Virus record (IMG/VR): IMGVR_UViG_3300028490_000005
Coordinates: 18,338 to 82,337 of that record
DNA: 64,000 nt
Source of the DNA: a virus
Reading direction: 5' to 3' (one strand)
Part shown: positions 2,792-58,900 of the stretch, piece by piece
Layout of the letters: every line of letters begins with the position of its first letter
Position numbering within the stretch: the first letter of the stretch is position 1
Made by a program: the position numbers and the translations under genes
Notes under the pieces: model-generated
Told to the model about the DNA's origin: nothing
Database searches by the model: none
What the model saw: the letters and a program-made list of their open reading frames with translations, nothing else

Positions 2792-3949
2792 ATGATAAGA
2801 GAACTAGACGCAAAATCCGAGAAAAATAAGAAAAGATTAATAAAGTTACTCAATGACGATATTGTATTGGTTGCCGATGAAAATAAAATTTGTAGGTTGA
2901 GAACTAAGGATTTAGAATGTGTTGATGGTGAAATTTCCACAGCTGAATTCCATAAACAAAAATCACATGATATTTTTATTAATGAATCACTTTGGTACAT
3001 ATACTTCATCAATAAAGACAAAAAAGAATTTGGTATTAAATTCAACAGCCAATCAGACGCAGTTTCCTTTTGGTATAAAGAAGTATTCAATGTAGATGAT
3101 GCGACTTTTGTGACTGTAGTTGCTACAGAGACAGCTAATGAAGAGAGAGTGAAAATAGTTTTGGAAAACAACAAATCATATTCATTCACTGAAAGATTGA
3201 TGTCAAATAGTGGTGAAGAAGCTAGAGCATATAAATTCTATTCACATAAATTGGATGAGTACGCTATAATTTCGAAAGATAATTTAAAAGATAATTGTGA
3301 GACATTGGATTTAGATGATCATTTACCAGCTGAATATCTATTTTGTGTGGAATATGAAAGAATTTTTAACATAAGCCTTGATTATAGAAATATCATCTCA
3401 CTTGAATATGTCAATAAAGATGGTCAAAAATTGGCTACTTTTAAGGACGGTTCTTCATATAAATATAACCAGTCTCAATTACATCGAAATAATAACTTTC
3501 CAATTATGTCATATATGAATTTTGGCTCAGAAGAATTTAAATCTCTTGTTTGTAGAATTACTGGACATAGATTTTTCAATGACAGTAAAATCCTAAAACA
3601 TCAAAATTATTCTGCTAAATTTAGTGCTGATTTTCACCACATGTTAGTTATTGATGGTGCAAGCGTACATAAGATTAGTAAAGAACCTTCTGCACTATTA
3701 AACGGTAAAATGAATGACCAAATATTCTTTGAATTGTTGTTTTGTACTATGATTTCTGGTTACGCTCATAAAGATTACCATTCAAAAGCTAGGAATATGA
3801 AGTTAAGTGATTACTATGAAGAACATTTACCGTTACACGTAGTGAGTGAGAGCCACTACTACATTACTCATAAGAAATATGGATTTGTACCGAGACTTAC
3901 TTGGCACGAGTTTAGACAAGCATTGGAAGGGGTATTAACAATTGATTAA
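2792..3949 (+). CDS. Hypothetical protein
   Basis: 385-aa ORF with its own promoter (TATAAT 2762-2767); no recognised motif. Confidence 0.6.
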   Translation: MIRELDAKSEKNKKRLIKLLNDDIVLVADENKICRLRTKDLECVDGEISTAEFHKQKSHDIFINESLWYIYFINKDKKEFGIKFNSQSDAVSFWYKEVFNVDDATFVTVVATETANEERVKIVLENNKSYSFTERLMSNSGEEARAYKFYSHKLDEYAIISKDNLKDNCETLDLDDHLPAEYLFCVEYERIFNISLDYRNIISLEYVNKDGQKLATFKDGSSYKYNQSQLHRNNNFPIMSYMNFGSEEFKSLVCRITGHRFFNDSKILKHQNYSAKFSADFHHMLVIDGASVHKISKEPSALLNGKMNDQIFFELLFCTMISGYAHKDYHSKARNMKLSDYYEEHLPLHVVSESHYYITHKKYGFVPRLTWHEFRQALEGVLTID

Positions 3950-5526: not shown

Positions 5527-6348
5527 ATGACAAGTTGGGAAATGATTGAACGAAACGCAAAAGAAGTTAGAGAGAACGGGTATTATATTCAAAGAGGTAT
5601 GCTTTCAAATTTAGATATTGAATGTATCCTTGACGTAACAATTCCTGCAATAGCTAATAATTATACAGAAGAATATGTAGAAAAGCGTTTGTATAGAAAA
5701 CGCGAGAATACTGAAGGGAGACAAGGCGATGCTGTATTAATGTCTATTGGTACACCAGATACAGCACCATTCATGTCGCTAGATGATAGATTCCCTTGTA
5801 TTGGTGGGTTGTACTTAAGTTACGTGAACACATTAAGTCAACTCCTTTATGGTGATTTTAGACTTGAAGATAATACAAAAGTTCTTGTAAATTATCAACA
5901 ATACAAAGAAGGGGCAAGTAATTCTTTACCTTTCCACTTTGACGCTGAGATTTTCAAGGGTGATTGGAACAAAGACTACATTAAGCTTGAAGAAGGGCTT
6001 ATCCCTAGAATGGTAATGGTGGTTGTGCTTGAAAATGAAAATGATGGTAAGGGCTTACAAATCATGACACCAAAGGGTGACATCATTGATTTAGACCTTG
6101 TTCCTGGAGACATTTTATATTTCGATAATACGGCTGTTCTACATGGTGTACCAGATGATCTTGATAAAAAGCGTACAATGATTGGTTTCAGAAGTTTTGA
6201 AACTGAACCACTTTTATTCAATAAACTTGGGTTTATGGATGGAACGGGTGTTATTGAGATTGATACACCATATGTCAAGGGTGAAGCGATTGAACTTACT
6301 ACTGAAAACGCAAAAGAAGAACTAATAAGAGAAGGATGGTATTATTAA
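5527..6348 (+). CDS. 2OG-Fe(II) dioxygenase superfamily protein
   Basis: HxD (PFHFD), distal H (VLHGV) and R (KRTMIGFR) in the spacing of a double-stranded beta-helix. Confidence 0.75.
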   Translation: MTSWEMIERNAKEVRENGYYIQRGMLSNLDIECILDVTIPAIANNYTEEYVEKRLYRKRENTEGRQGDAVLMSIGTPDTAPFMSLDDRFPCIGGLYLSYVNTLSQLLYGDFRLEDNTKVLVNYQQYKEGASNSLPFHFDAEIFKGDWNKDYIKLEEGLIPRMVMVVVLENENDGKGLQIMTPKGDIIDLDLVPGDILYFDNTAVLHGVPDDLDKKRTMIGFRSFETEPLLFNKLGFMDGTGVIEIDTPYVKGEAIELTTENAKEELIREGWYY

Positions 6349-11646: not shown

Positions 11647-13669
11647 GCCTTGCCCAAACTAGATTAGACATAACTCATAATAGAGTTGTCACTGAAAAAT
11701 ACCAAACGATGTTACGAAAAGCTGATGACTACATACAAGCCCATTTACTTGATATCGATGAGGTTGAAAAGAGAAAAATCCTAGTATGTGATCATATTAG
11801 GAAAACGAGAATAAAATTTGTAAATTGGACAGACGAACAGATATTAGACAGATTTGAGAAACTTAATGAAAAACATGAACGGGAAGAGGAATTAGTATGA
11901 TTAAAATTACGAATAAAGTTAAAAAACACGTGAAAAAGAACCCAACGTCTCAGTATCAGTTAATTGTAACTTTCGACGATGGAGACGATATACTACATAT
12001 GGGTCTAACACCAGAATTGCTAGAAAAATTAACATCAGCTTATGATGCTTTCAGAGAGAGATTAGATGCTGATTGGAATAAATGGTGTAACCCAGAATCT
12101 TATCAAATTAAAGAACTATTTGAAGAATTTGGCGTAATTGAAGAAGATGAGGATGAATATGATTTTCTTGAATTAGAATATTGGTCATGGAGTAATGAAT
12201 ATCCTGACCCTATGGCAAGAGTTGATGGTTATACTATCACGTATTGGGATGAAAATGGTATAGAATGGAATACGGAGGTACAAAAATAATGGACACAAGA
12301 AACGCATTAGGTCAACCAATTAATGTTGGTGACTGGTTAGGGCATTCAAATAGGACGGCTGGGGTTGTAGAGGTTACAACTGGGCAAGTCAAAGAAATTA
12401 ATGACGGTAAAGTTGTATTGGAAAACGTGCATAGAGGGAGAGCTTCTTATGAAGATGTGATCTCACAAATTAAAGTAAAACGCTCAGTTGTTACTCTAGT
12501 TGCGAATTCACTTTTCCCAATACAATCAGTAATTATGTGGGATGGTATTATTCAAGATGTTTAAATTTATTTGTGAGGGTGGACACGTTTATAGTCAAAA
12601 TGATATGGACGAACATTACATTTCACCCACTGCTGTTGGTGAACTTTATGGTATTAGACCAGCTAAGTGTATTTGGAAAAAGAGACATATATACTCAGAA
12701 ACTGGAGCAAGTGAAACAATTTACCTCACGCCAGACAGTAGTGGTAAATATGATTTAGTGGATGAAGTTGTACGCCAAATTAATCAACGTATTATACCGA
12801 AGGTGTTAAATAGACAAATTACATCTATTGAAAACTTCTCATTCTTCCAAAGACTGAAATTCCTATTCACTTCGAGATTAGTTTAATGGATTGCACTGAA
12901 TATAAATTCGACTATTGGAAACGCATAGTCATTAAGGATATCATCGGTGCTGAATATAGATGGTATGTTAATGTAGAAGACGTTTTCCAAGGGGTTGATA
13001 TTAACCGTTGTGACGATTGTTTGGTTGAAGGCTATGTTTCAATCAGTATTGTTTTTAATATGCAAGATATGAGTACACATGAACTTGATTGTACTCTACA
13101 GTCCATGGGATTGAAAAAGTTAAATTTTACGGATTTAGACCTGATGGGTGAACTAATTACCACTGAGAGTGGCTTCTTGTGTGAGCATTGTAATGATATA
13201 TTAGAAGAGTTTGATATATTGGATTTAAGTCAATAATAAGGTTACGACGCTATAATAAGTTATGGATATATTTAAAGAACTGGAACTCGCAGAATCAGAG
13301 TTGAACACATTAGATCACATTGATATTTGGTTTCACCGAACTTTCGGTGGGTTCATTGACTTCTTCAGGTATGATTTACCACAAGGGATTAAAAACTTCT
13401 GGTATTATAGGAAAGTAATATGGAGACACCGTTGGTATGACTATGGTTTTGCCGATGACGTTGTTCGTAGGTTGTATGAAGATAGGTCTGAAAATTGGCA
13501 CAAGAGCCACTATGTAGGATTTGAAAAAGATGCTTTACAACTTGACATAATCGTAGAACTTTTTAAAAGACTAGAAGATGCCGAATTCTTGACAGTAGAA
13601 GATGACCCTGAAGATAAAATCAGAAAAGAAATTTACAGAAGAATAGCGAGGAAACGATATTGGGATTAA
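11643..13669 (+). other. Run of hypothetical genes (11643, 11897 acidic, ~12289, ~12557, 12886, 13262)
   Basis: Tightly packed and overlapping + strand ORFs. Confidence 0.55.
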
Positions 13670-14061
13670 TAGAAAAATTGTTTGATAAATACAATGAGTT
13701 TATAAAATTTGAAACCATTGATATTGAAGATAGGCTCAGACGACACACCGAAATCTTGGGCTTCTATCAATCAACATTTTACACCATGAAACAAAAACAT
13801 ACTAAATATTCATTTGAATTGGATAGACAATGGCAAGAAAAATACCTCTACTATAAAAACGAATTCAATATAGTCTTAAACAACAATGAAATTAAGTCCT
13901 TTATTGAAAAGGACTTAGAATATTTAGAAATTAAGAGAAAACTTCAAGAAGTGACTGACATTTTAGAACAAATAGAATTAATCCTGAAAGGGTTGGATTC
14001 AATGAGATGGACTATAAAATCTATAATTGATTGGGAAAAATTTAAGGCTGGTCAGTTCTAA
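13660..14061 (+). CDS. uvsY: Recombination mediator UvsY-like
   Basis: Helical 133-aa protein ending WTIKSIIDWEKFKAG, typical of the UvsY C-terminus; near uvsW. Confidence 0.72.
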   Translation: MGLIEKLFDKYNEFIKFETIDIEDRLRRHTEILGFYQSTFYTMKQKHTKYSFELDRQWQEKYLYYKNEFNIVLNNNEIKSFIEKDLEYLEIKRKLQEVTDILEQIELILKGLDSMRWTIKSIIDWEKFKAGQF

Positions 14062-14071
14062 TTAAATAACT
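14062..14071 (+). promoter_or_regulatory. T4-like late promoter TTAAATAACT
   Basis: Same 10-mer at 25229, 61298 and 22207-22216 (minus strand); related to the T4 late promoter TATAAATA. Confidence 0.65.
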
Positions 14072-14090
14072 AAAACAACTAGGAGTTTTA

Positions 14091-14330
14091 ATGTTAAAAC
14101 AAATCATAGAAAAAATTACAAATGAAGTTATGTGCCCAGAAGCTAGATCTTTTGCATCTAAATTGGCAAAGAAGAGTGGTATGGTAACTATTAAGTGTAA
14201 AAAGACTGGGGATGAATTTGAAGTTGATTCAGATGCGAGCATTTTAGGTGGTTGGGTTTCAGCCAAAGGCAGTGATGGTAAATCAACTGATATAGATCTT
14301 TGTGGTAATAAAGATTATAAATTCGCATAA
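14091..14330 (+). CDS. Small protein with MLKQIIE leader; putative internal head protein
   Basis: Leader shared with neighbours; late promoter; AGGAG RBS. Confidence 0.55.
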   Translation: MLKQIIEKITNEVMCPEARSFASKLAKKSGMVTIKCKKTGDEFEVDSDASILGGWVSAKGSDGKSTDIDLCGNKDYKFA

Positions 14331-14339
14331 GGTATTGTA

Positions 14340-14600
14340 ATGTTAAAAGAAATCTTAGAAAAATCAAATGAAGTGAAAGATAAGAAAGCTTACGAAAAGA
14401 TTTATAAAGACATCATTGAATACATGGAAGAAGTGATTGCATATAGAGAAAAGATGAAATCTCGTGGTGATAAATTGGATGAATTATATAAAGAACAAAC
14501 TGGGAAGTCTATTTTGTTCCAAAGTCTCTATAATGGTAGTGTTATCACTAAAGATGATATTGATAATTTGAAAAAATTATCTAAGAAGAGGTTATCGTAA
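14340..14600 (+). CDS. Small protein with MLKEILE leader; putative internal head protein
   Basis: Shared leader. Confidence 0.55.
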   Translation: MLKEILEKSNEVKDKKAYEKIYKDIIEYMEEVIAYREKMKSRGDKLDELYKEQTGKSILFQSLYNGSVITKDDIDNLKKLSKKRLS

Positions 14601-14791
14601 TGTTAAGAGAAATAGTAGAAGCCATTTCTTACGGTAACGTTAAGCAAAGACACGGGGCGTATATCTTTCATTTTGATGGAGATACAATTACTATGGTAGA
14701 TAAAGCTGGTAAGGTGATGGGCACTAAAAAATCCCCTTCTTTAGCATCAGTCCATACTAAAGCTATGACAAAAGAATTTGGTGGTAAGTAA
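14600..14791 (+). CDS. Small protein with MLREIVE leader; putative internal head protein
   Basis: Shared leader, TAATG coupling. Confidence 0.55.
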   Translation: MLREIVEAISYGNVKQRHGAYIFHFDGDTITMVDKAGKVMGTKKSPSLASVHTKAMTKEFGGK

Positions 14792-14973
14792 TGTTAAGAG
14801 AAATAGTAGAGGGTGCAGACTGGGGTGAAGATGCTGAATTAACATTTTCAAAAATCATGAAGATAGTTGATGACATTAATTCTAAGATAAGTTCTGCTAA
14901 ATTAGACGCAAGAACTTACCAAACACTAGAAAAAGCTAAACAAGAGCTTGAGAAAGCGTTAAGGAGAATGTAA
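14791..14973 (+). CDS. Small protein with MLREIVE leader; putative internal head protein
   Basis: Shared leader; 5' 20 nt identical to those of 14600. Confidence 0.55.
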   Translation: MLREIVEGADWGEDAELTFSKIMKIVDDINSKISSAKLDARTYQTLEKAKQELEKALRRM

Positions 14974-15272
14974 TGATTAGAGAAATAGTAGAAGGGTTGG
15001 GATTAGCTTCTGGTTCTAATTATTCGTACTTGAGTGGGAATAAAGATAACCGTCCAACTGGGATTTTAGTTCACACAAAAAGTGAGCGTGGTTCAATAAA
15101 GATCGCGTCAGAAGTAGAGAAAAGAGGACTTAAGTCTGAAATTCGTGACGGTAAGAAACAAATTGAAATATACGCAAGTCATTATAGTGATGAGGAAAAA
15201 TCTTATTTATCTAATATCATCGCTGGAGATGAATTAGATAAATTAATTAAAAAGATAGAAATATTAAACTAA
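14973..15272 (+). CDS. Small protein with MIREIVE leader; putative internal head protein
   Basis: Shared leader, TAATG coupling. Confidence 0.55.
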   Translation: MIREIVEGLGLASGSNYSYLSGNKDNRPTGILVHTKSERGSIKIASEVEKRGLKSEIRDGKKQIEIYASHYSDEEKSYLSNIIAGDELDKLIKKIEILN

Positions 15273-15346
15273 AAATTCAAGGAGAATGTAATGAGAGATA
15301 TAGTATTTTGTGGTGAAGAAATCTTAAAAGAAGGAGGAGACGCATA

Positions 15347-15562
15347 ATGTTAAAAGAAATTATAGAAAAAATCGAAGAAAAAGATATGATCAATCTTGGT
15401 GATTTTGAAAACCAAAAACATAAGAAATTGATTGATGAAGATTCAGATTATCAAAAATTCTTTCAGAAAAAGCTTAAGTCTTGGGGTGTAAAATCACCAG
15501 CTGAACTTGATAAAGAAAAGAGAAAGAAATTCTTTACTGAAATCGAAAAGGATTGGAAGTAA
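15347..15562 (+). CDS. Small protein with MLKEIIE leader and YQKFF...GVKSPAEL...KKFF...W motif (head/core-associated type)
   Basis: Shared leader; strong RBS AAGGAGGAG. Confidence 0.55.
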   Translation: MLKEIIEKIEEKDMINLGDFENQKHKKLIDEDSDYQKFFQKKLKSWGVKSPAELDKEKRKKFFTEIEKDWK

Positions 15563-15563
15563 A

Positions 15564-15857
15564 GTGTTAAGAGAAATTTTAGAGGAGCTTGAAATTGATG
15601 AGCTTAAGGGAAATATTGACCCAAAGGCTAAGAAACATGCTAAGATAGTTTCAAAAGCTAGAGCGAAAGTAAAATGCTCCGGAAATAATACTCCCTCTAA
15701 AATTAAAGACACTGGGACATCTGTTCGTTTCAAGTGTACTCCCAAAGACAAAACAAAGGCTAGAAAGATGGTAAAGGTTAGGAAGAAATTCAATAAGACC
15801 TCTGCAGGAAAGAAAGCCGTGAAAGTATCAAAACTTACAAAGAAATTTAGAAAATAG
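15564..15857 (+). CDS. Very basic protein with (M)LREILE leader, possibly prohead core (gp68-like)
   Basis: GTG at 15564 restores the shared leader (the track starts at 15507); Lys/Arg-rich with a Cys pair. Confidence 0.5.
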   Translation: MLREILEELEIDELKGNIDPKAKKHAKIVSKARAKVKCSGNNTPSKIKDTGTSVRFKCTPKDKTKARKMVKVRKKFNKTSAGKKAVKVSKLTKKFRK

Positions 15858-15863
15858 TCCATA

Positions 15864-15923
15864 TTTAAGCAAGGTTTAAGCCAACTTACGGTATAATAGA
15901 GTATAAAGTTTGAAAGGCTTGAT
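15864..15923 (+). promoter_or_regulatory. Early promoter + RBS repeat
   Basis: Near-identical to 7826. Confidence 0.85.
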
Positions 15924-16655
15924 ATGACTATCCAACTACCAAAATTCACATTACTAGAGAAGTTATCTACTTCTGACGCAATATCTTGTTGCGATCGTTG
16001 TGAACGTGAAATCAAAAACTCATACATTATTAGAAATAACGAAGATAACTCTGTACACAACTATGGTTCTGGATGTGCTAAGCACGTTATGGGAATTTCA
16101 ATTACAGAAGTTGTTGAGCAAAATAAAGCTTATGACGAAGACCAAAAAAGAATAGCACGTGAAGCCGATCAAGAAGCTATGGGTAGAACTTACATACAAT
16201 CGTTTAATGAAGCTAATCCTAAAATGCTTAAGTTTATTGCTGAAGGTGCTACTGACAACAATTTCCTTTCTGACATGAAGAAGCGTATAGAGGAAACGGG
16301 TTCATTGACTGATGGGCAGTTTCACGCTGTGTATCGTATGATGTTACCTTTCGCTCAACTTGACGACAAAGTTAAGGACATGAAAGTGTACCCTTCAAAG
16401 ATTAATGCTCAAGAGGGTCAATGGGGTTGGTCTTATACAGTAACATGTATTACTGAAAACGATGAGAAAGTTCGTATATTCTTTTCATCATTGAATTTGG
16501 CTAACGGTGACCTCCTTGAAAAATGTGGTGTGATAGATGGTGATTTATTCCCTTCAAGAATTGACAAAGAAAATCCTATATTGGTTTCTGGTTCATTCGA
16601 TGGGTATAAAATCAAAAGAGCTAAGTTGGCAACTATTAAGCAAGATTTAAACTAA
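15924..16655 (+). CDS. Hypothetical early protein with Zn-binding N-terminus
   Basis: CDRC...YGSGC; preceded by a full promoter repeat. Confidence 0.6.
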   Translation: MTIQLPKFTLLEKLSTSDAISCCDRCEREIKNSYIIRNNEDNSVHNYGSGCAKHVMGISITEVVEQNKAYDEDQKRIAREADQEAMGRTYIQSFNEANPKMLKFIAEGATDNNFLSDMKKRIEETGSLTDGQFHAVYRMMLPFAQLDDKVKDMKVYPSKINAQEGQWGWSYTVTCITENDEKVRIFFSSLNLANGDLLEKCGVIDGDLFPSRIDKENPILVSGSFDGYKIKRAKLATIKQDLN

Positions 16656-17084: not shown

Positions 17085-18779
17085 GTGTTAATAAAAGATA
17101 GAGATGAAAGTTACTCGATTTTATCATTCGAAAATCACTCAAACAGTGAAGCTATAGAGCTGAGAGTTAAGCTTATGGATGACTTATCAGTATTTGTTGA
17201 TGGATATAAATTCAGTCCTAAATTCAGAGCTGGTGTGTGGGACGGAAAGAAATACTACTTCAAGATGCAAGTAGATATGTCAATGCAAATACCAAAAGGC
17301 TTGGCGGAAACTATATCGAAACGGTATGCTCAGCACTTAGATGAACCATATGAACCAATCAACAAACCAACACCATACCCAAAGGAAGTTGTCGAAAGTC
17401 ACATAGAATCATTAAAATTACCATTTGAACCATACGATTATCAAATTGATTCGCTCTATGAAGTATTAGAAAATCCTAGAAGGATTTTGGTGGCAGCGAC
17501 TGGTGCGGGTAAATCACTAATAATATACATAATAATGACATTTTTTGAAGCTCAAAATATGAAAGGATTATTGATTGTTCCAAATGTTGGTTTGGCTGAA
17601 CAAATGCGGACGGATTTTATAAGTTATGGAATGAGTGATGAAGAAGTAGATAAACGACTTCATACAATATTCGCTGGTAAAGAAAAAACATTCAGAAAAC
17701 CGATGACAGTAACTACTTGGCAATCAGCCGTCCTTATGGATTCATCACATTTCGATCAATTAAATTATGTGATTGTCGATGAAGCTCACCTAGCAACTGG
17801 GGAAAGTTTACAAAAATTATTAGCAGTGTCAAGGAATTGTACATATAAAATTGGATTAACTGGAACTCTACCAAAAACTTATGAAGGTAGGTTCACACTA
17901 TCAGCTACTCTTGGTAAAAGTGCTAAGATGATTACTCCTCAAGGTTTAATTGAAAGAGGGTTGGCTACACCAGTTACAATCATTACTGCTTATTTGAATT
18001 ACAGTATCGCTGATAAAAAGAAAGTTAAGGTATTAAAAAATTACCAAAAGGAAATAAAATTTCTCGAGGAACATCAAGGTCGTAACGACTTTATTGCCAA
18101 ACTAGCAATTCAAGCAACCAAGAAATATGGAAATACATTGATGATGTATAGTTCAATTCAACATGGAACGAATTTGTTAGGATTTGTCCTTTCCAATAAA
18201 TTCAACATAGACACACCAACAATTCTAGAAAAGGTTACTCCGAAAAGAGTTGCGGAAGCTAAGGAAGCTTGTTCAGACGCCGAAGGATTGTTTGTATTGA
18301 CTAAGCTCACACCAAAGGATATCAAAACTCTGAGTAAATACTATTCAGGCTCCGAAATAACCAATATAAAAGTCCTGAGTGATTATCACATATACTTGAT
18401 AAAAGGAAGTATTGAGGGAGAGGTGAGAAATGAAATCAGGGCATTGTTGGAGAAGGTTGATGATGCTATTTTAATTGGTTCAGCACAAACTGTTTCCACT
18501 GGTATGAATATTAAGAGATTGCACAACATATTCCTGACAAGCAGTACAAAATCATCGATTAGATTGAATCAAACTATTGGACGTGGTATGAGATTACATG
18601 GTGAAAAGAAAATGATGAGATTCTTTGACTTTATTGATGATTTTAGTACAAAGACGAAAAGAGGTAAGGTCACTAACAAAAACTATACTCTGAAACACAG
18701 TTATGAAAGATTGAACGAATACCTGGAACACGGGTATCCAATTAAAGAATTAGAAATAAATATAAAGGAAGACGATTGA
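17085..18779 (+). CDS. uvsW: SF2 DNA helicase UvsW
   Basis: GVWDGK N-terminal motif, ATGAGKS, DEAH, GLTGT, QTIGRGMR. Confidence 0.93.
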   Translation: MLIKDRDESYSILSFENHSNSEAIELRVKLMDDLSVFVDGYKFSPKFRAGVWDGKKYYFKMQVDMSMQIPKGLAETISKRYAQHLDEPYEPINKPTPYPKEVVESHIESLKLPFEPYDYQIDSLYEVLENPRRILVAATGAGKSLIIYIIMTFFEAQNMKGLLIVPNVGLAEQMRTDFISYGMSDEEVDKRLHTIFAGKEKTFRKPMTVTTWQSAVLMDSSHFDQLNYVIVDEAHLATGESLQKLLAVSRNCTYKIGLTGTLPKTYEGRFTLSATLGKSAKMITPQGLIERGLATPVTIITAYLNYSIADKKKVKVLKNYQKEIKFLEEHQGRNDFIAKLAIQATKKYGNTLMMYSSIQHGTNLLGFVLSNKFNIDTPTILEKVTPKRVAEAKEACSDAEGLFVLTKLTPKDIKTLSKYYSGSEITNIKVLSDYHIYLIKGSIEGEVRNEIRALLEKVDDAILIGSAQTVSTGMNIKRLHNIFLTSSTKSSIRLNQTIGRGMRLHGEKKMMRFFDFIDDFSTKTKRGKVTNKNYTLKHSYERLNEYLEHGYPIKELEINIKEDD

Positions 18780-21378: not shown

Positions 21379-22179
21379 CTAGACTGACACCAATTTATAA
21401 CCACAGAACTTAGAACGTCCTTGGTTGTGAATTCGTTTAAAAATTCCTTGGTTTGTGATGTCACTATATACTCTACAAGAGTCAATGTATTTGCATGCAT
21501 TCTTAGGCAGTCCAACATCGACTAAAGTTTCATACATTGCACCCTGAGCGACAATTTCACCAAGTAAATCATAAATTATTATCTCCCTAGCCATAGGGTT
21601 ATCGGTGCCAAGTCGTTTTCCTTTTCTAACATTAGACATTTTGTTCTTTGTTTCTTGAGAAAGAACTTTACCTAAATTTGCTTGTCTTAATTTTTCAAGG
21701 TGTTCTTTTGATTTTTGTTTTCCTTTTAATGAATTAGATATTTTTTGACGGTGTTCAGGTGGTAAATTTTTACCCCTGAACGCAGAGCCATTTTTATATC
21801 TAGTTTCATCGGAAGGGTTTCTGTGACCTTCACTTATTCTTTTTCTAGTTTCTTTTGAAAAAATTATACCTGATTGGTCGAATCCAGAAGAAGTTTGTTT
21901 AGCTTTATTAATGAATTTTTCATTTTTCGCAACATCAAACTTCTCATGTAGGAATATTTCATATTCAATTGCAGATTCTCTATCTACAAATGTTTCAATG
22001 ATAAAATATAAGTATTCTTCTGGGTTTGAAATTTGTCTTTGTTTAAAATTTTTATCAGTTGAAGAAGTACGGTATTTTGTGATATCGACTTCTGGTTCGA
22101 TATCACTTGAACGTGCACCTATGTAGTATCTATCAGTTGGTATTTCAAAAACTATATATACATAATTATATTTTTTCAT
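21379..22179 (-). mobile_element. Free-standing GIY-YIG (Seg-like) homing endonuclease with NUMOD3 repeats
   Basis: YVY...YYIG, Y.TSS, E and N of the catalytic domain; repeats such as SKETRKRIS, SKEHLEKL, SQETKNKMS; only minus-strand gene; own TTAAATAACT promoter at 22207-22216. Confidence 0.88.
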
Positions 22180-55926: not shown

Positions 55927-58900
55927 ATGATAGAGAATTTTATTGATTCATGGAAATCATCGGGGGTTGTAGTAAGTGTGACTCCTAGATTAATCCCATA
56001 TGATGAAATAACAGTGGTTCCTCTAGGACCACCAATGAATAAGGACGAAAGGTTGAGAATGATGGGGTTTGTTAAGATAATAAAAAATGGCGAGGTAAAA
56101 TATGTTTCTATTCAGAGGAGTTGAGGTTTGTGACTGTGATTGTCACAAAGAGGGTAGAAATATCATGCACTTCATGGCTTGCTGTGATTTATGTGGTTTT
56201 GACTACATAAATCACGATGGTTCAATAAAAGAAGAAGTCTTGTATAAATTGCTTAGAATGGACTTCGTAGAAAAGGCAGAGGTAACATATGGCAAACTCA
56301 AAAATATCAAACATACCAAATAATGGGTGTGAAAGAAAATACAATCTAATATTTGAATTCGGTAAAAGAAATCGAATCCAACATTTCCTACAAGACGTTG
56401 AAAGGTTCAGAGATGTTTATGGTGATGAGACACTCAATGAAATGTTGGATTGGATAAAACACGATCAGTCAGAGTCATACAGTGAAAAGATTTCGGAAAA
56501 CTATGATCTTATATTGGAAGCAGTTCAAAAGGAAAGTTCATGAGTGGTGCGTTTATATTAGTATTGTTGTTCTTAGCATTTTTAATCATACCGAATAACG
56601 GTGAGAAAGCTCCTATAGATAAATTTTTCGAATGGTTGGACGGAAGAGGTATTAATGAAGAGTCTTTAAAACACAAGGGTGATAAAGAATTTATTCTAAA
56701 AATGATCAATGATGACATTCAAAAAGATAATGATAGAGATATAGAAATTATGGCAATGGGGTTCAAGAATAGGGATCTTACAAAAAAGATAACTGACATT
56801 GACCCTTACAAACGCTACATATTTCATGGTGGTTGCCATGGATGTATTGTACCTGAAAGAGATAGTATTTCTATGTGTTTAGGATGTCAATATTATAACC
56901 GTGATTTAAATGTTAGTCTATATGAAGGAAAAGATAATGAGAAATTGTGAAGTATGTGGGAAAAATGATTTAGCGACGATGGTACATAGTTCAAGTGTTG
57001 CTGGGGCAAGTTTCAACTTTTGCAGTTGTTGTAGTCCAATGGGTGCAGAGCCTTCTGGGTTAGTAGATTCATATATTTCATACGATAGTAATTCTGACAG
57101 TTATTATGATGAGTCAGATAATCATATGGAAATAGTTTTAGCAAATGGTTTGAAATTTCAGACTAGAGGAGAATATGTAAAATGGAGAGAAGAAAATAAA
57201 AATGGATGATTTAATAGAAGCATTACAAATATTTAGGAAGTACGGCAACCCAGATAACCCAACTCATTGTGAGCACGATGAAATGTGGATTGATATTGAT
57301 AATGAAGACGTATCAGACGCAGACATTAAAAAGCTTGACGATTTAGGGTTTTTTATAAATGAAAGTGAGGGAGGATTTAGTTCTTTCCGTTTTGGAAGCT
57401 GTTAAGCTTGTTTTAAGCGAAGTTACGGTATAATAGAGTATATTAAAATAAAGGTTCAAAAATGATAAAAGATTTACTAGAAAAGTATGAGGCAAAGCTT
57501 CAAGAGTTTCAAGCAGAATTTGACGAAGCGTATGAATCACAATACACAGAAAGATGTGATGAGTTAGATGAAGTTATTGAGTTATGTACTGAAATCATTG
57601 AAGATTTGAAAGGGTAAAGTGATGGATATGTTTAAAAATATAGATTGGCAAAAAGGTTTGTTAGAAGGTGCGTTGGCAGTAGGATTCTTTTTGATTGTTT
57701 ACTTAATGATCACTATTATGGTGTTCACTTCTGGGCGTCCAATTGATCCCAATTTACAATACATTTTAACTATACTCACAACAACCATCATGTATTTCAA
57801 TATGATGGATAAGCGTGATATGGATAAAAGGTTAGATGAGATTGTTGAAACTTTAGAGACAATTGAAGATACTACTGAGGCAACTTGGGATATTCAGCGT
57901 ATGGATGATGAAGATTTTACCATCGATGAACTTAGAGAAATGATTGAAGACCTTCAAATTGAAATTGATGTGAAATCAGAAAGTAAAGCAAGAGATTTAA
58001 AGTAATTGTCAATTTAAGCAAGGTTTAAGCTACATTAGGGTATAATAGTATATAAAGTTTGAAAGGCTTAAAATGGAAAATGGTTTAAATGTTATTGACA
58101 AAACTATATTAGGACTCACTGCAGGACTATTGATTACAATGGGTATATTTTATGAATCACCTGAAACAAGGAATACATTGGTTTGTAAGTATAGTTATCT
58201 TGTAAGGGACGTTGACTACTATAGTCAAGGTTATACGAATGAAATCCCAAGCACGGTAAATGGTTGTGTTCAAACAACAACTAATGTGTATTGTGGGACT
58301 ATGTCACTTGAAAGAACCAAAAAAGGTACAACATATTGCGAGAAGAAAGGTAAATAATGGTACAATACAATTTAGATATAAAAGACGCATTGGTTATGGC
58401 AACTGAATTACAAACAATTTCAGCGTGTGCTCAAACTAACGACGCAATCATATCAGACATATCTACTCAGGAAAGTTTAGTTGTTGAGGTGATGGCATTA
58501 GATTTCAATACGGTAAGTAATGAATATGAACCAAATCTCAAAAATGTATTTGATACAATTATATGTGCTTTAAAGTACAATATGAAGCCAGTGGGAGTTA
58601 CATATAATCTACTTGATTATTTGGTAAGTAAAATTCCTCAAATAAAAAATAACATAGAAGCATTAGATTACGCTACTCTGAACGCTGACGAAGAAGATAT
58701 GGACGAATTGAACGAACAATATTTAGTTCAGTCAGCTTTATTGAACCTCGTATATACATTGAGTAACAGTAACAAATTCGAAACGGTACAAACGAGACGA
58801 AAGGAACGTAATGATTCATAAGTTACTGAATGAAATTCTAACTGAAATGAACGAAAAAGCTGAAACAATTTTAGGCACTAAGATGATTAGACCTGAAGAT

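Follow-up and report, generated by a model that had tools for sequence, protein, structure and literature searches.

We analyzed a 64,000-nt window (the whole stretch of DNA under study) of IMGVR_UViG_3300028490_000005, an uncultured T4-related phage whose full contig spans 82,337 bp, and describe here an array of seven consecutive plus-strand open reading frames (ORFs) of 60 to 99 codons that lies at positions 14091 to 15857, between a uvsY-like gene and a gene for a uvsW-type helicase. The seven ORFs share the N terminus M-[LI]-[KR]-[EQ]-I-[ILV]-E (hereafter, the tag), with the seventh starting from GTG, and their products are referred to as cargoes 1 to 7. The features of the locus are as follows, in window coordinates (G001, G005, and L053 are relatives described below).

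13660 to 14061, plus strand: uvsY-like recombination mediator gene, the upstream anchor (phrog_231, E value of 9e-16)
14062 to 14069, plus strand: late-promoter-like motif TTAAATAA, 29 nt before the first ATG of the array
14091 to 14330, plus strand: cargo 1, 79 amino acids, MLKQIIE, three cysteines
14340 to 14600, plus strand: cargo 2, 86 amino acids, MLKEILE, K/E-rich and probably helical, no family match
14600 to 14791, plus strand: cargo 3, 63 amino acids, MLREIVE, with a tagged orthologue in a four-gene array on contig L053
14791 to 14973, plus strand: cargo 4, 60 amino acids, MLREIVE, with tagged orthologues after uvsY in G001 and G005
14973 to 15272, plus strand: cargo 5, 99 amino acids, MIREIVE
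15279 to 15347, plus strand: relic of an eighth cassette, consisting of a ribosome-binding site and ATG-AGAGATATAGTA followed by an 18-codon ORF (15291 to 15347)
15347 to 15562, plus strand: cargo 6, 71 amino acids, MLKEIIE (phrog_28651, E value of 2e-6), with tagged orthologues in G001, G005, and L053
15564 to 15857, plus strand: cargo 7, 97 amino acids, GTG start, VLREILE
17085 to 18779, plus strand: uvsW-type helicase gene, the downstream anchor (phrog_16, E value of 6e-72)
57462 to 57617, plus strand: loose tag-like start MIKDLLE on an acidic 51-amino-acid ORF, of doubtful membership

The genes are tightly packed, most junctions being TAATG overlaps, and all seven tags carry I-[ILV]-E at residues 5 to 7. 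The first-pass annotation of this DNA had described seven neighboring genes with a common seven-residue leader and unrelated bodies, and both the ORF list and a six-frame scan of the whole contig agree with that description: the motif is confined to the seven array starts and the single loose MIKDLLE, the corresponding DNA pattern is matched 7 times against 0.04 expected from shuffled sequences, and the bodies, once stripped of the tag, give no mutual BLASTP match at an E value of ≤1e-3. The same annotation noted identical DNA at two of the genes; the identity is real and extends over 23 nt (GTAATGTTAAGAGAAATAGTAGA), with its copies at 14597 and 14788 rather than at 14598 and 14789. Local alignment to positions 14961 to 14990 identifies the relic as a decayed copy of the ribosome-binding site and tag start of cargo 5, bearing a 3-nt deletion and one mismatch. 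It occupies the 74-nt gap before cargo 6, whose ribosome-binding site is also supplied by the relic's 18-codon ORF. Because a 23-nt identity and a decayed cassette lie within one array, we consider the array to be turning over.

Selection on the tag as a peptide

Conservation among tagged genes runs from the ATG to codon 7, with a hydrophobic residue usual at position 9, and upstream of the ATG only the Shine-Dalgarno sequence is kept. When the DNA consensus of the tag was sought in five genomes, it lay at an ORF start at 36 of 36 sites with no more than one mismatched nucleotide and at 15 of 16 sites with two mismatches. Synonymous alternatives occur at every codon (TTA/CTA/CTT/CTC/TTG, AGA/CGA, GAA/GAG, and ATT/ATA/ATC), and replacements stay within K/R or I/L/V. 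Among variants found at the nucleotide level, 74% of the codon differences are synonymous or conservative, compared with 42% expected, and second codon positions are the least variable. Moreover, one peptide is kept across genomes whose GC contents are 34% and 21% and whose replication proteins are only 33 to 45% identical. This synonymous variation, the restriction to ORF starts, and the identity across such different base compositions together argue that selection acts on the peptide.

The same data bear on whether the conserved 21 nt might instead act as RNA, either as a translation-initiation enhancer or as the operator of a translational regulator of late messages, with the peptide as a by-product. 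A block that is A/U-rich and begins exactly at the start codon, several copies with almost the same DNA, among them the pair sharing 23 nt, and genes coupled as tightly as those of the TAATG-linked array would all suit such an element. We nevertheless regard it as very improbable, given the synonymous alternatives at every codon, the K/R and I/L/V replacements, and the strong constraint on second positions, given also that the peptide is unchanged between genomes of 21% and 34% GC, and given that head and tail genes preceded by the same upstream motif lack the 21-nt block.

Two other nucleotide-level candidates were rejected. The TAATG start/stop overlap is specific to this contig and is absent from the relatives, so it is not part of the signal. 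Repeated promoter or ribosome-binding-site cassettes, of the kind moved by promoter early stem-loop (PeSL)-like shuffling units, do not describe the array either, because only the Shine-Dalgarno sequence is conserved upstream and the repeated unit begins at the ATG. The contig does possess a recurrent early-type cassette (TACGGTATAAT), which does not occur within the array; one copy, with TACGGTATAAT at about 15880 to 15900, lies directly after it, at approximately 15870 to 15923, ahead of a 243-amino-acid ORF at 15924. A scan of the array for sigma-70 promoters and terminators returned no more than expected by chance.

Distribution of the tag and its cargoes among relatives

The contig represents a distant T4-like phage and contains its module for replication and nucleotide metabolism, with genes for a clamp loader, a DnaB-like helicase, a split family-B polymerase, gp32, RNase H, primase, UvsW, and UvsY, as well as a thymidylate-synthase-like gene, RNA ligase, and Nampt. 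Searched at the nucleotide level, the locus has no match among cultured phages, and the nearest cultured relatives, as judged by UvsW and by the best-conserved protein of 496 amino acids, are about 34 to 36% identical (for UvsW, the best matches are Campylobacter phages, at 34%). The tag was not found in the first 50 kb of Campylobacter phage NCTC12673, and a literature search for the tag strings gave no match. Among uncultured relatives whose core proteins are 33 to 80% identical to those of the contig, the tag occurs on 2 to 23 genes each and always at the exact N terminus. The relatives that define its distribution are as follows.

G005 (140 kb): core proteins 60 to 80% identical; three tagged genes after uvsY (orthologues of cargoes 1, 4, and 6) and about eleven elsewhere
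G001 (110 kb): UvsY 76% identical; four tagged genes after uvsY (a first strict scan gave three, orthologues of cargoes 4, 6, and 7) and others dispersed among genes for ligase, ribonucleotide reductase, and topoisomerase
G002 (34 kb): UvsY 61% identical; two tagged genes after uvsY, with different bodies
G004 (48.7 kb, 34% GC): 10 tagged genes by strict and 20 by relaxed criteria
L053 (7 kb): a tandem array of four tagged genes, including orthologues of cargoes 3 and 6
G003 (222,650 bp, complete with terminal repeats, 21% GC): replication proteins 33 to 45% identical; 13 strict MLKEI[IL]E genes, and approximately 10 further genes in which position 7 is K, N, or Q
G010 (155 kb, complete): core proteins approximately 40 to 65% identical; no intact tagged gene, with uvsY followed directly by uvsW

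In G010, inspection of the relevant loci (L166-L173; 115710-117814 and 58657-59323) revealed only two truncated tag relics, of 32 and 9 codons. A complete genome of the clade can thus lack intact tagged genes, which shows the tagged gene family to be accessory. The set of cargoes after uvsY differs in each relative, and the tag is not confined to this position, being scattered across the relatives' genomes on up to about 20 genes, enzymes included.

These differing cargo sets, together with the 23-nt identity, the relic at 15279 to 15347, and the hypervariability reported for the internal-protein loci of T-even phages (PMC3012670), could also be read as the mark of a passive recombination joint, in which a short homology moves cassettes and the shared start is itself functionless. 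Passive homology, however, would not be expected to persist as a peptide among phages whose core proteins are 33 to 45% identical, nor to do so through synonymous change, and we judge this explanation quite improbable. Recombination at the tag is in any case compatible with, and expected under, a role of the tag in targeting.

Where tagged proteins of the relatives have recognizable domains, the domain boundaries indicate that the tag is an N-terminal add-on. Two tagged Acb1 proteins (PF23474, E values of 6e-26 and 2e-25) have their domain starting at residue 17 or 12, corresponding to a 10-residue N-terminal extension relative to crystallized Acb1 (7T26); a tagged domain of the S-adenosylmethionine (SAM) lyase family starts at residue 49, a tagged cytidylyltransferase at residue 31, and a tagged DUF5856 at residue 35, and the tag also precedes a weak poly(ADP-ribose) polymerase (PARP)-like stretch and DUF285 repeats. 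The tagged Acb1 of G004 (L085:477-953) matches the C-terminal domain of the portal protein of cyanophage Pam3 (8HDS chain A, residues 470 to 617; E value of 5e-4), and an Acb1-type (2H-phosphoesterase) domain may therefore form part of a virion. In Pam3 this domain is covalently fused to the portal, whereas in the clade described here it bears a tag in place of a fusion.

All Pfam matches of the window's seven cargoes are below threshold, and in PHROGs only cargo 6 has a match (phrog_28651). Near-orphan status applies to cargoes 1, 5, and 7, which have between one and seven relatives each: cargo 1 has one homologue (74% identity, also tagged) and an orthologue in G005, cargo 5 has a single true homologue among 1.84 billion representatives (likewise tagged), and cargo 7 has seven, which all have the tag at their start (with V as the called first residue in two cases) and so support its GTG start. 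Since no cargo matches a known Pfam family, and only cargo 6 a PHROG, the proposal in the first-pass annotation that the cargoes are linked to modified DNA and type IV restriction is left without support.

AlphaFold2 models of two cargoes place the tag apart from the rest of the protein. In cargo 5, residues 1 to 26 (the tag helix and linker) have low confidence and residues 30 to 98 form a generic ferredoxin-like core; in cargo 7 (mean predicted local distance difference test score of 77), a tag helix at residues 2 to 8 and a low-confidence linker at residues 9 to 15 lead into a helix, a hairpin, and then two helices. The tag may thus be a short helix tethered through a low-confidence linker to a folded core, for which these models are weak evidence because the underlying alignments are shallow. 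Foldseek found no significant PDB match for either model, and a lead from the ESM Atlas (0.86 to 0.88) that cargo 5 is LAGLIDADG-like was not borne out by its AlphaFold2 model.

Head genes of the clade and a candidate virion-loading signal

The complete genome G003 encodes a set of head genes comprising the large terminase (TerL), a likely portal, a 159-amino-acid protein, a 676-amino-acid fusion of an S77 protease to a scaffold (PF03420, E value of 3e-12; phrog_207), and a capsid protein, all homologues of which have the Gp23 domain PF07068. A PF03420 search of the window's contig, G001, and G002 gave no match, nor did the G003 capsid protein as a query against G001, G004, G005, G006, and G007. 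Used as a single-protein query, the G003 protease found only itself; an alignment-based scan yielded 70 head modules. Three of these, from the lineage nearer to the window, share their source metagenome with G001 (L104), G004 (L102), and G005 (L101) and have the gene order of G003, with protease domains 49 to 58% identical to that of G003. In Pfam, L101 has Gp23 above the cutoff and S77 just below it.

The scaffold portions of these proteins contain a motif resembling the tag. F-[KR]-E-I-[LV]-E-[DE] is conserved inside six protease-scaffold proteins, or seven with the differently placed KEIIE of L096, and scaffolds of the G003 group have K-[QE]-[IV]-L-E about 40 residues from the C-terminal end. 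Altogether there are 11 strict matches in 21 proteins, compared with 1.15 expected from shuffled sequences. In G010, which lacks intact tagged genes, the aligned scaffold site reads FAKEALIE, as opposed to F[KR]EI[LV]E in tagged lineages. In the capsid proteins, the conserved N-arm motif NG-x-Y-x-DLGVLPNIALDV is immediately preceded by [FLM]-x-E, whose Glu is invariant and stands at the position where a T4-like propeptide is expected to end. Since an invariant Glu occupies this very position, the protease of the clade very probably cuts after hydrophobic-x-Glu, a form that the tag shares.

Several further observations concern tagged genes themselves. Three tagged small proteins contain E-[SD]-D-G-[SG]-Y-[GD]-D-L-G-V-I-P, a stretch that copies the capsid region after the invariant Glu (F-S-E / S-N-G-G-Y-G-D-L-G-V-L-P); they are encoded at G001 position 3479 (L015), at G002 position 5682 (L021), and at L104:3428-3628, directly upstream of TerL, and may mimic the mature N-arm of the capsid protein together with its cut site. 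Between the protease-scaffold and capsid genes of a 154-kb relative lies a 90-amino-acid ORF beginning MLRTIIE (L107:9504-9776), that is, a tag-like gene within a head module. The large terminase gene is apparently interrupted in two modules (L101:31-5692 and L102:2994-5584), its N- and C-terminal parts lying 0.7 to 3.9 kb apart, and the ORFs inserted in the L101 terminase include, among others, a tagged DUF285 protein and a relative of a 569-amino-acid protein of G003.

The motif TTAAATAA may connect tagged genes with structural genes in their timing. The T4 late promoter is TATAAATA, which TTAAATAA resembles. Only four copies of TTAAATAA are present on the gene strand of the 82-kb contig, one of them heading the array. 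In G003, it occurs at −25 to −30 before capsid, portal, sheath, and other structural genes, while small genes near the structural genes have TATAAT-type boxes in its place; in G001 and G004, it heads tagged arrays, including the gene of a tagged Acb1. Tagged genes have it upstream disproportionately often (pooled odds ratio of 3.2, P = 7e-5). The late promoter that the first-pass annotation placed at the head of the array is therefore present as a motif, and its designation as late is by analogy only.

The shared tag, selection on its peptide, its spread through the clade, the clade's protease, scaffold, and capsid genes, and the scaffold motif are established here. Building on these, we favor (at a probability of about 0.6) the interpretation that the heptapeptide M-L-[KR]-E-I-[ILV]-E serves as a T4-style virion-loading, or capsid-targeting, tag in an uncultured clade of T4-related myoviruses, with a new and shorter sequence and a larger set of cargoes. 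Cleavage would probably follow Glu7, by analogy with T4, and is somewhat less certain than the tag reading itself. Under this model, tagged genes would be transcribed late along with the head genes, and the tag, as a short amphipathic N-terminal helix, would dock its cargo on the scaffold core during prohead assembly. The S77 (gp21-type) prohead protease, fused to the scaffold, would then cleave after the Glu of I-x-E and free the mature cargo within the head, from which it would exit together with the phage DNA when the next cell is infected. The array at 14091 to 15857 would represent one hot spot of cassette gain, loss, and swapping, the swapping probably proceeding by recombination between near-identical tag-coding sequences.

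The first-pass annotation had already proposed a shorter targeting code with swappable cargo, and that proposal receives partial support, all of it indirect, from several independent lines: the peptide is under selection and ends in I-x-E, the clade possesses an S77 protease, a gp23-type capsid protein, and the scaffold motif, TTAAATAA heads the array, and anti-defense domains occur among the tagged proteins of relatives. It requires qualification in that the contig of the window is without head genes, Glu7 is variable, and the tag extends beyond the array to other genes, including those for enzymes.

Several points weigh against virion loading, as follows.

(i) The contig is 53% complete (CheckV) and has no head gene or protease, so that its connection to a head module is drawn from relatives.

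(ii) Tag-like starts are present on up to 20 of the 84 called genes of the G004 fragment, enzymes included, which is far above the number of cargoes in T4.

(iii) About 10 of the 23 tag-like starts of G003, and several of those of G004, have K, N, Q, L, or R in place of Glu7. Because Glu7 is replaced in a sizeable minority of the relatives' tags, cleavage at position 7 cannot be universal.

(iv) Position 9 is conserved although it lies beyond the proposed cut, and the functional unit may thus reach past it.

(v) The tag has no sequence similarity to the capsid-targeting sequence (CTS) of T4 and has seven residues rather than ten; only the hydrophobic spacing and the I-x-E end are alike.

(vi) The scaffold matches represent few independent events because the proteins are homologous.

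(vii) The late character of TTAAATAA is assigned by analogy, and a gp55-type late sigma factor, sought among ten further ORFs, was not found. A screen of public sequencing runs listed no RNA run containing the phage, and two DNA runs contained less than one-tenth of the sampled sequence words.

Some of these points would also fit with a protein-level tag addressed to a partner outside the capsid, such as a phage chaperone, a modifying enzyme, a regulated protease, or the tail or baseplate. The peptide would then be selected and set apart from the folded core just as observed, Glu7 would not need to be invariant, and the many enzymes among the tagged proteins, as well as one tagged protein with the DUF285 leucine-rich repeats typical of surface proteins, would be readily accommodated. 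No recurrent enzyme gene, however, accompanies the arrays, which are flanked by uvsY and uvsW here and by ligase, ribonucleotide reductase, and topoisomerase genes in relatives; a leader for a dedicated maturase, either radical-SAM-linked or like those of ribosomally synthesized and posttranslationally modified peptides (RiPPs), was rejected because no modifying-enzyme partner recurs at the arrays. The match of the tag to a motif internal to the scaffold, and to the hydrophobic-x-Glu form at the boundary of the capsid propeptide, points to the head instead, and we therefore consider a partner outside the capsid unlikely.

A more ambitious version of the virion-loading interpretation, which we put forward tentatively and to which we give less than even odds, is that the heptapeptide is a clade-wide address code by which a large, fast-changing share of the accessory genes is loaded as a ready-made counterdefense kit. 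This share would amount to approximately 5 to 25% of the genes on the fragments and would include Acb1, the SAM-lyase-family enzyme, an enzyme resembling nicotinamide mononucleotide (NMN) adenylyltransferase, and many orphans, and the motif in the scaffold would likewise serve there as a cut or docking site.

Were virion loading correct, the proteins that a phage delivers with its DNA, which are its first response to host defenses, could be read from a genome or metagenome alone, and for an entire uncultured clade. Counterdefense enzymes such as Acb1 would arrive ready-made rather than being produced after entry, which would alter the timing assumed in models of the arms race, and the seven orphan cargoes would become candidates for new inhibitors of host defense. 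The CTS of T4 has already been used to pack foreign proteins into capsids, and a seven-residue tag with its matching protease could offer a compact tool for the same purpose.

Comparison with known packaging systems and additional features of the locus

Mullaney and Black (1996) reportedly described the CTS of the T4 internal proteins IPI, IPII, and IPIII and the propeptide of Alt as being removed by gp21. In the internal proteins of T4, only the 10-residue CTS is common; gp21 removes it after L/I-x-E, residues 4 and 7 serve targeting, and residues 8 and 10 serve processing (PMC9026906, PMC3012670, PMC9391042). The tag resembles this sequence in being a short, amphipathic N-terminal peptide that is common to unrelated, fast-changing proteins and that ends in (I/L)-x-Glu. 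The likeness extends to other genes of the clade, in which relatives of the window's phage encode a scaffold, a gp21-family protease, and a gp23-family capsid protein, to a locus that varies between relatives, and to cargoes that include small basic proteins and, in relatives, counterdefense enzymes. Cargo 7, whose mature part has an isoelectric point of 10.6 and 31 Lys and Arg among 90 residues, is small and very basic in the manner of IPII and IPIII (PMC3012670). The clade differs from T4 in that its protease is fused to the scaffold, in its larger number of tagged genes (7 to about 23 on each genome fragment, against four), in cargoes with Acb1, SAM-lyase-family, and cytidylyltransferase domains, and in a Glu at the proposed cut site that is not invariant.

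Larger cargo sets have precedents in phiKZ, 201phi2-1, and SPN3US, in which many head or ejection proteins are loaded and trimmed after Glu by diverged homologues of gp21 (PMC9026906, PMC5694885); these phages are not close relatives of the clade, and their propeptides are long and dissimilar, with the cut motif S/A-x-E. Counterdefense proteins that are preloaded in the capsid and delivered with the DNA are likewise represented by the Dar proteins of phage P1, whose packing, in contrast, is ordered and protein dependent and involves no common heptapeptide (PMC9024508, PMC12810830).

Three further observations concern tagged genes and the surroundings of the array. A family of paralogues of about 250 amino acids, with no Pfam match, has tag-like or diverged N termini (MFRQA.., MLREAIQ.., and MLKEILQ..) and is encoded in G001 (gene strand, 24707), G003 (179279 and 188052), G004 (31049 and 37090), and G005 (110023-110790); in this family, body and N terminus may have been inherited as a unit, without swapping. 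The only sizeable minus-strand gene near the array is a homing-endonuclease-like ORF at window positions 21379 to 22179 (phrog_314, E value of 2e-26). Finally, the C-terminal module of cargo 6, of about 40 amino acids (window positions 15446 to 15562) and with the pattern W-G-V-K-S-P-x-E-L-D-K-x-x-R-K-K-F-F, also occurs in jumbo phages that infect Vibrio, Pseudomonas, Erwinia, and Tenacibaculum, and some of its copies are located within ORFs annotated as DNA ligase.

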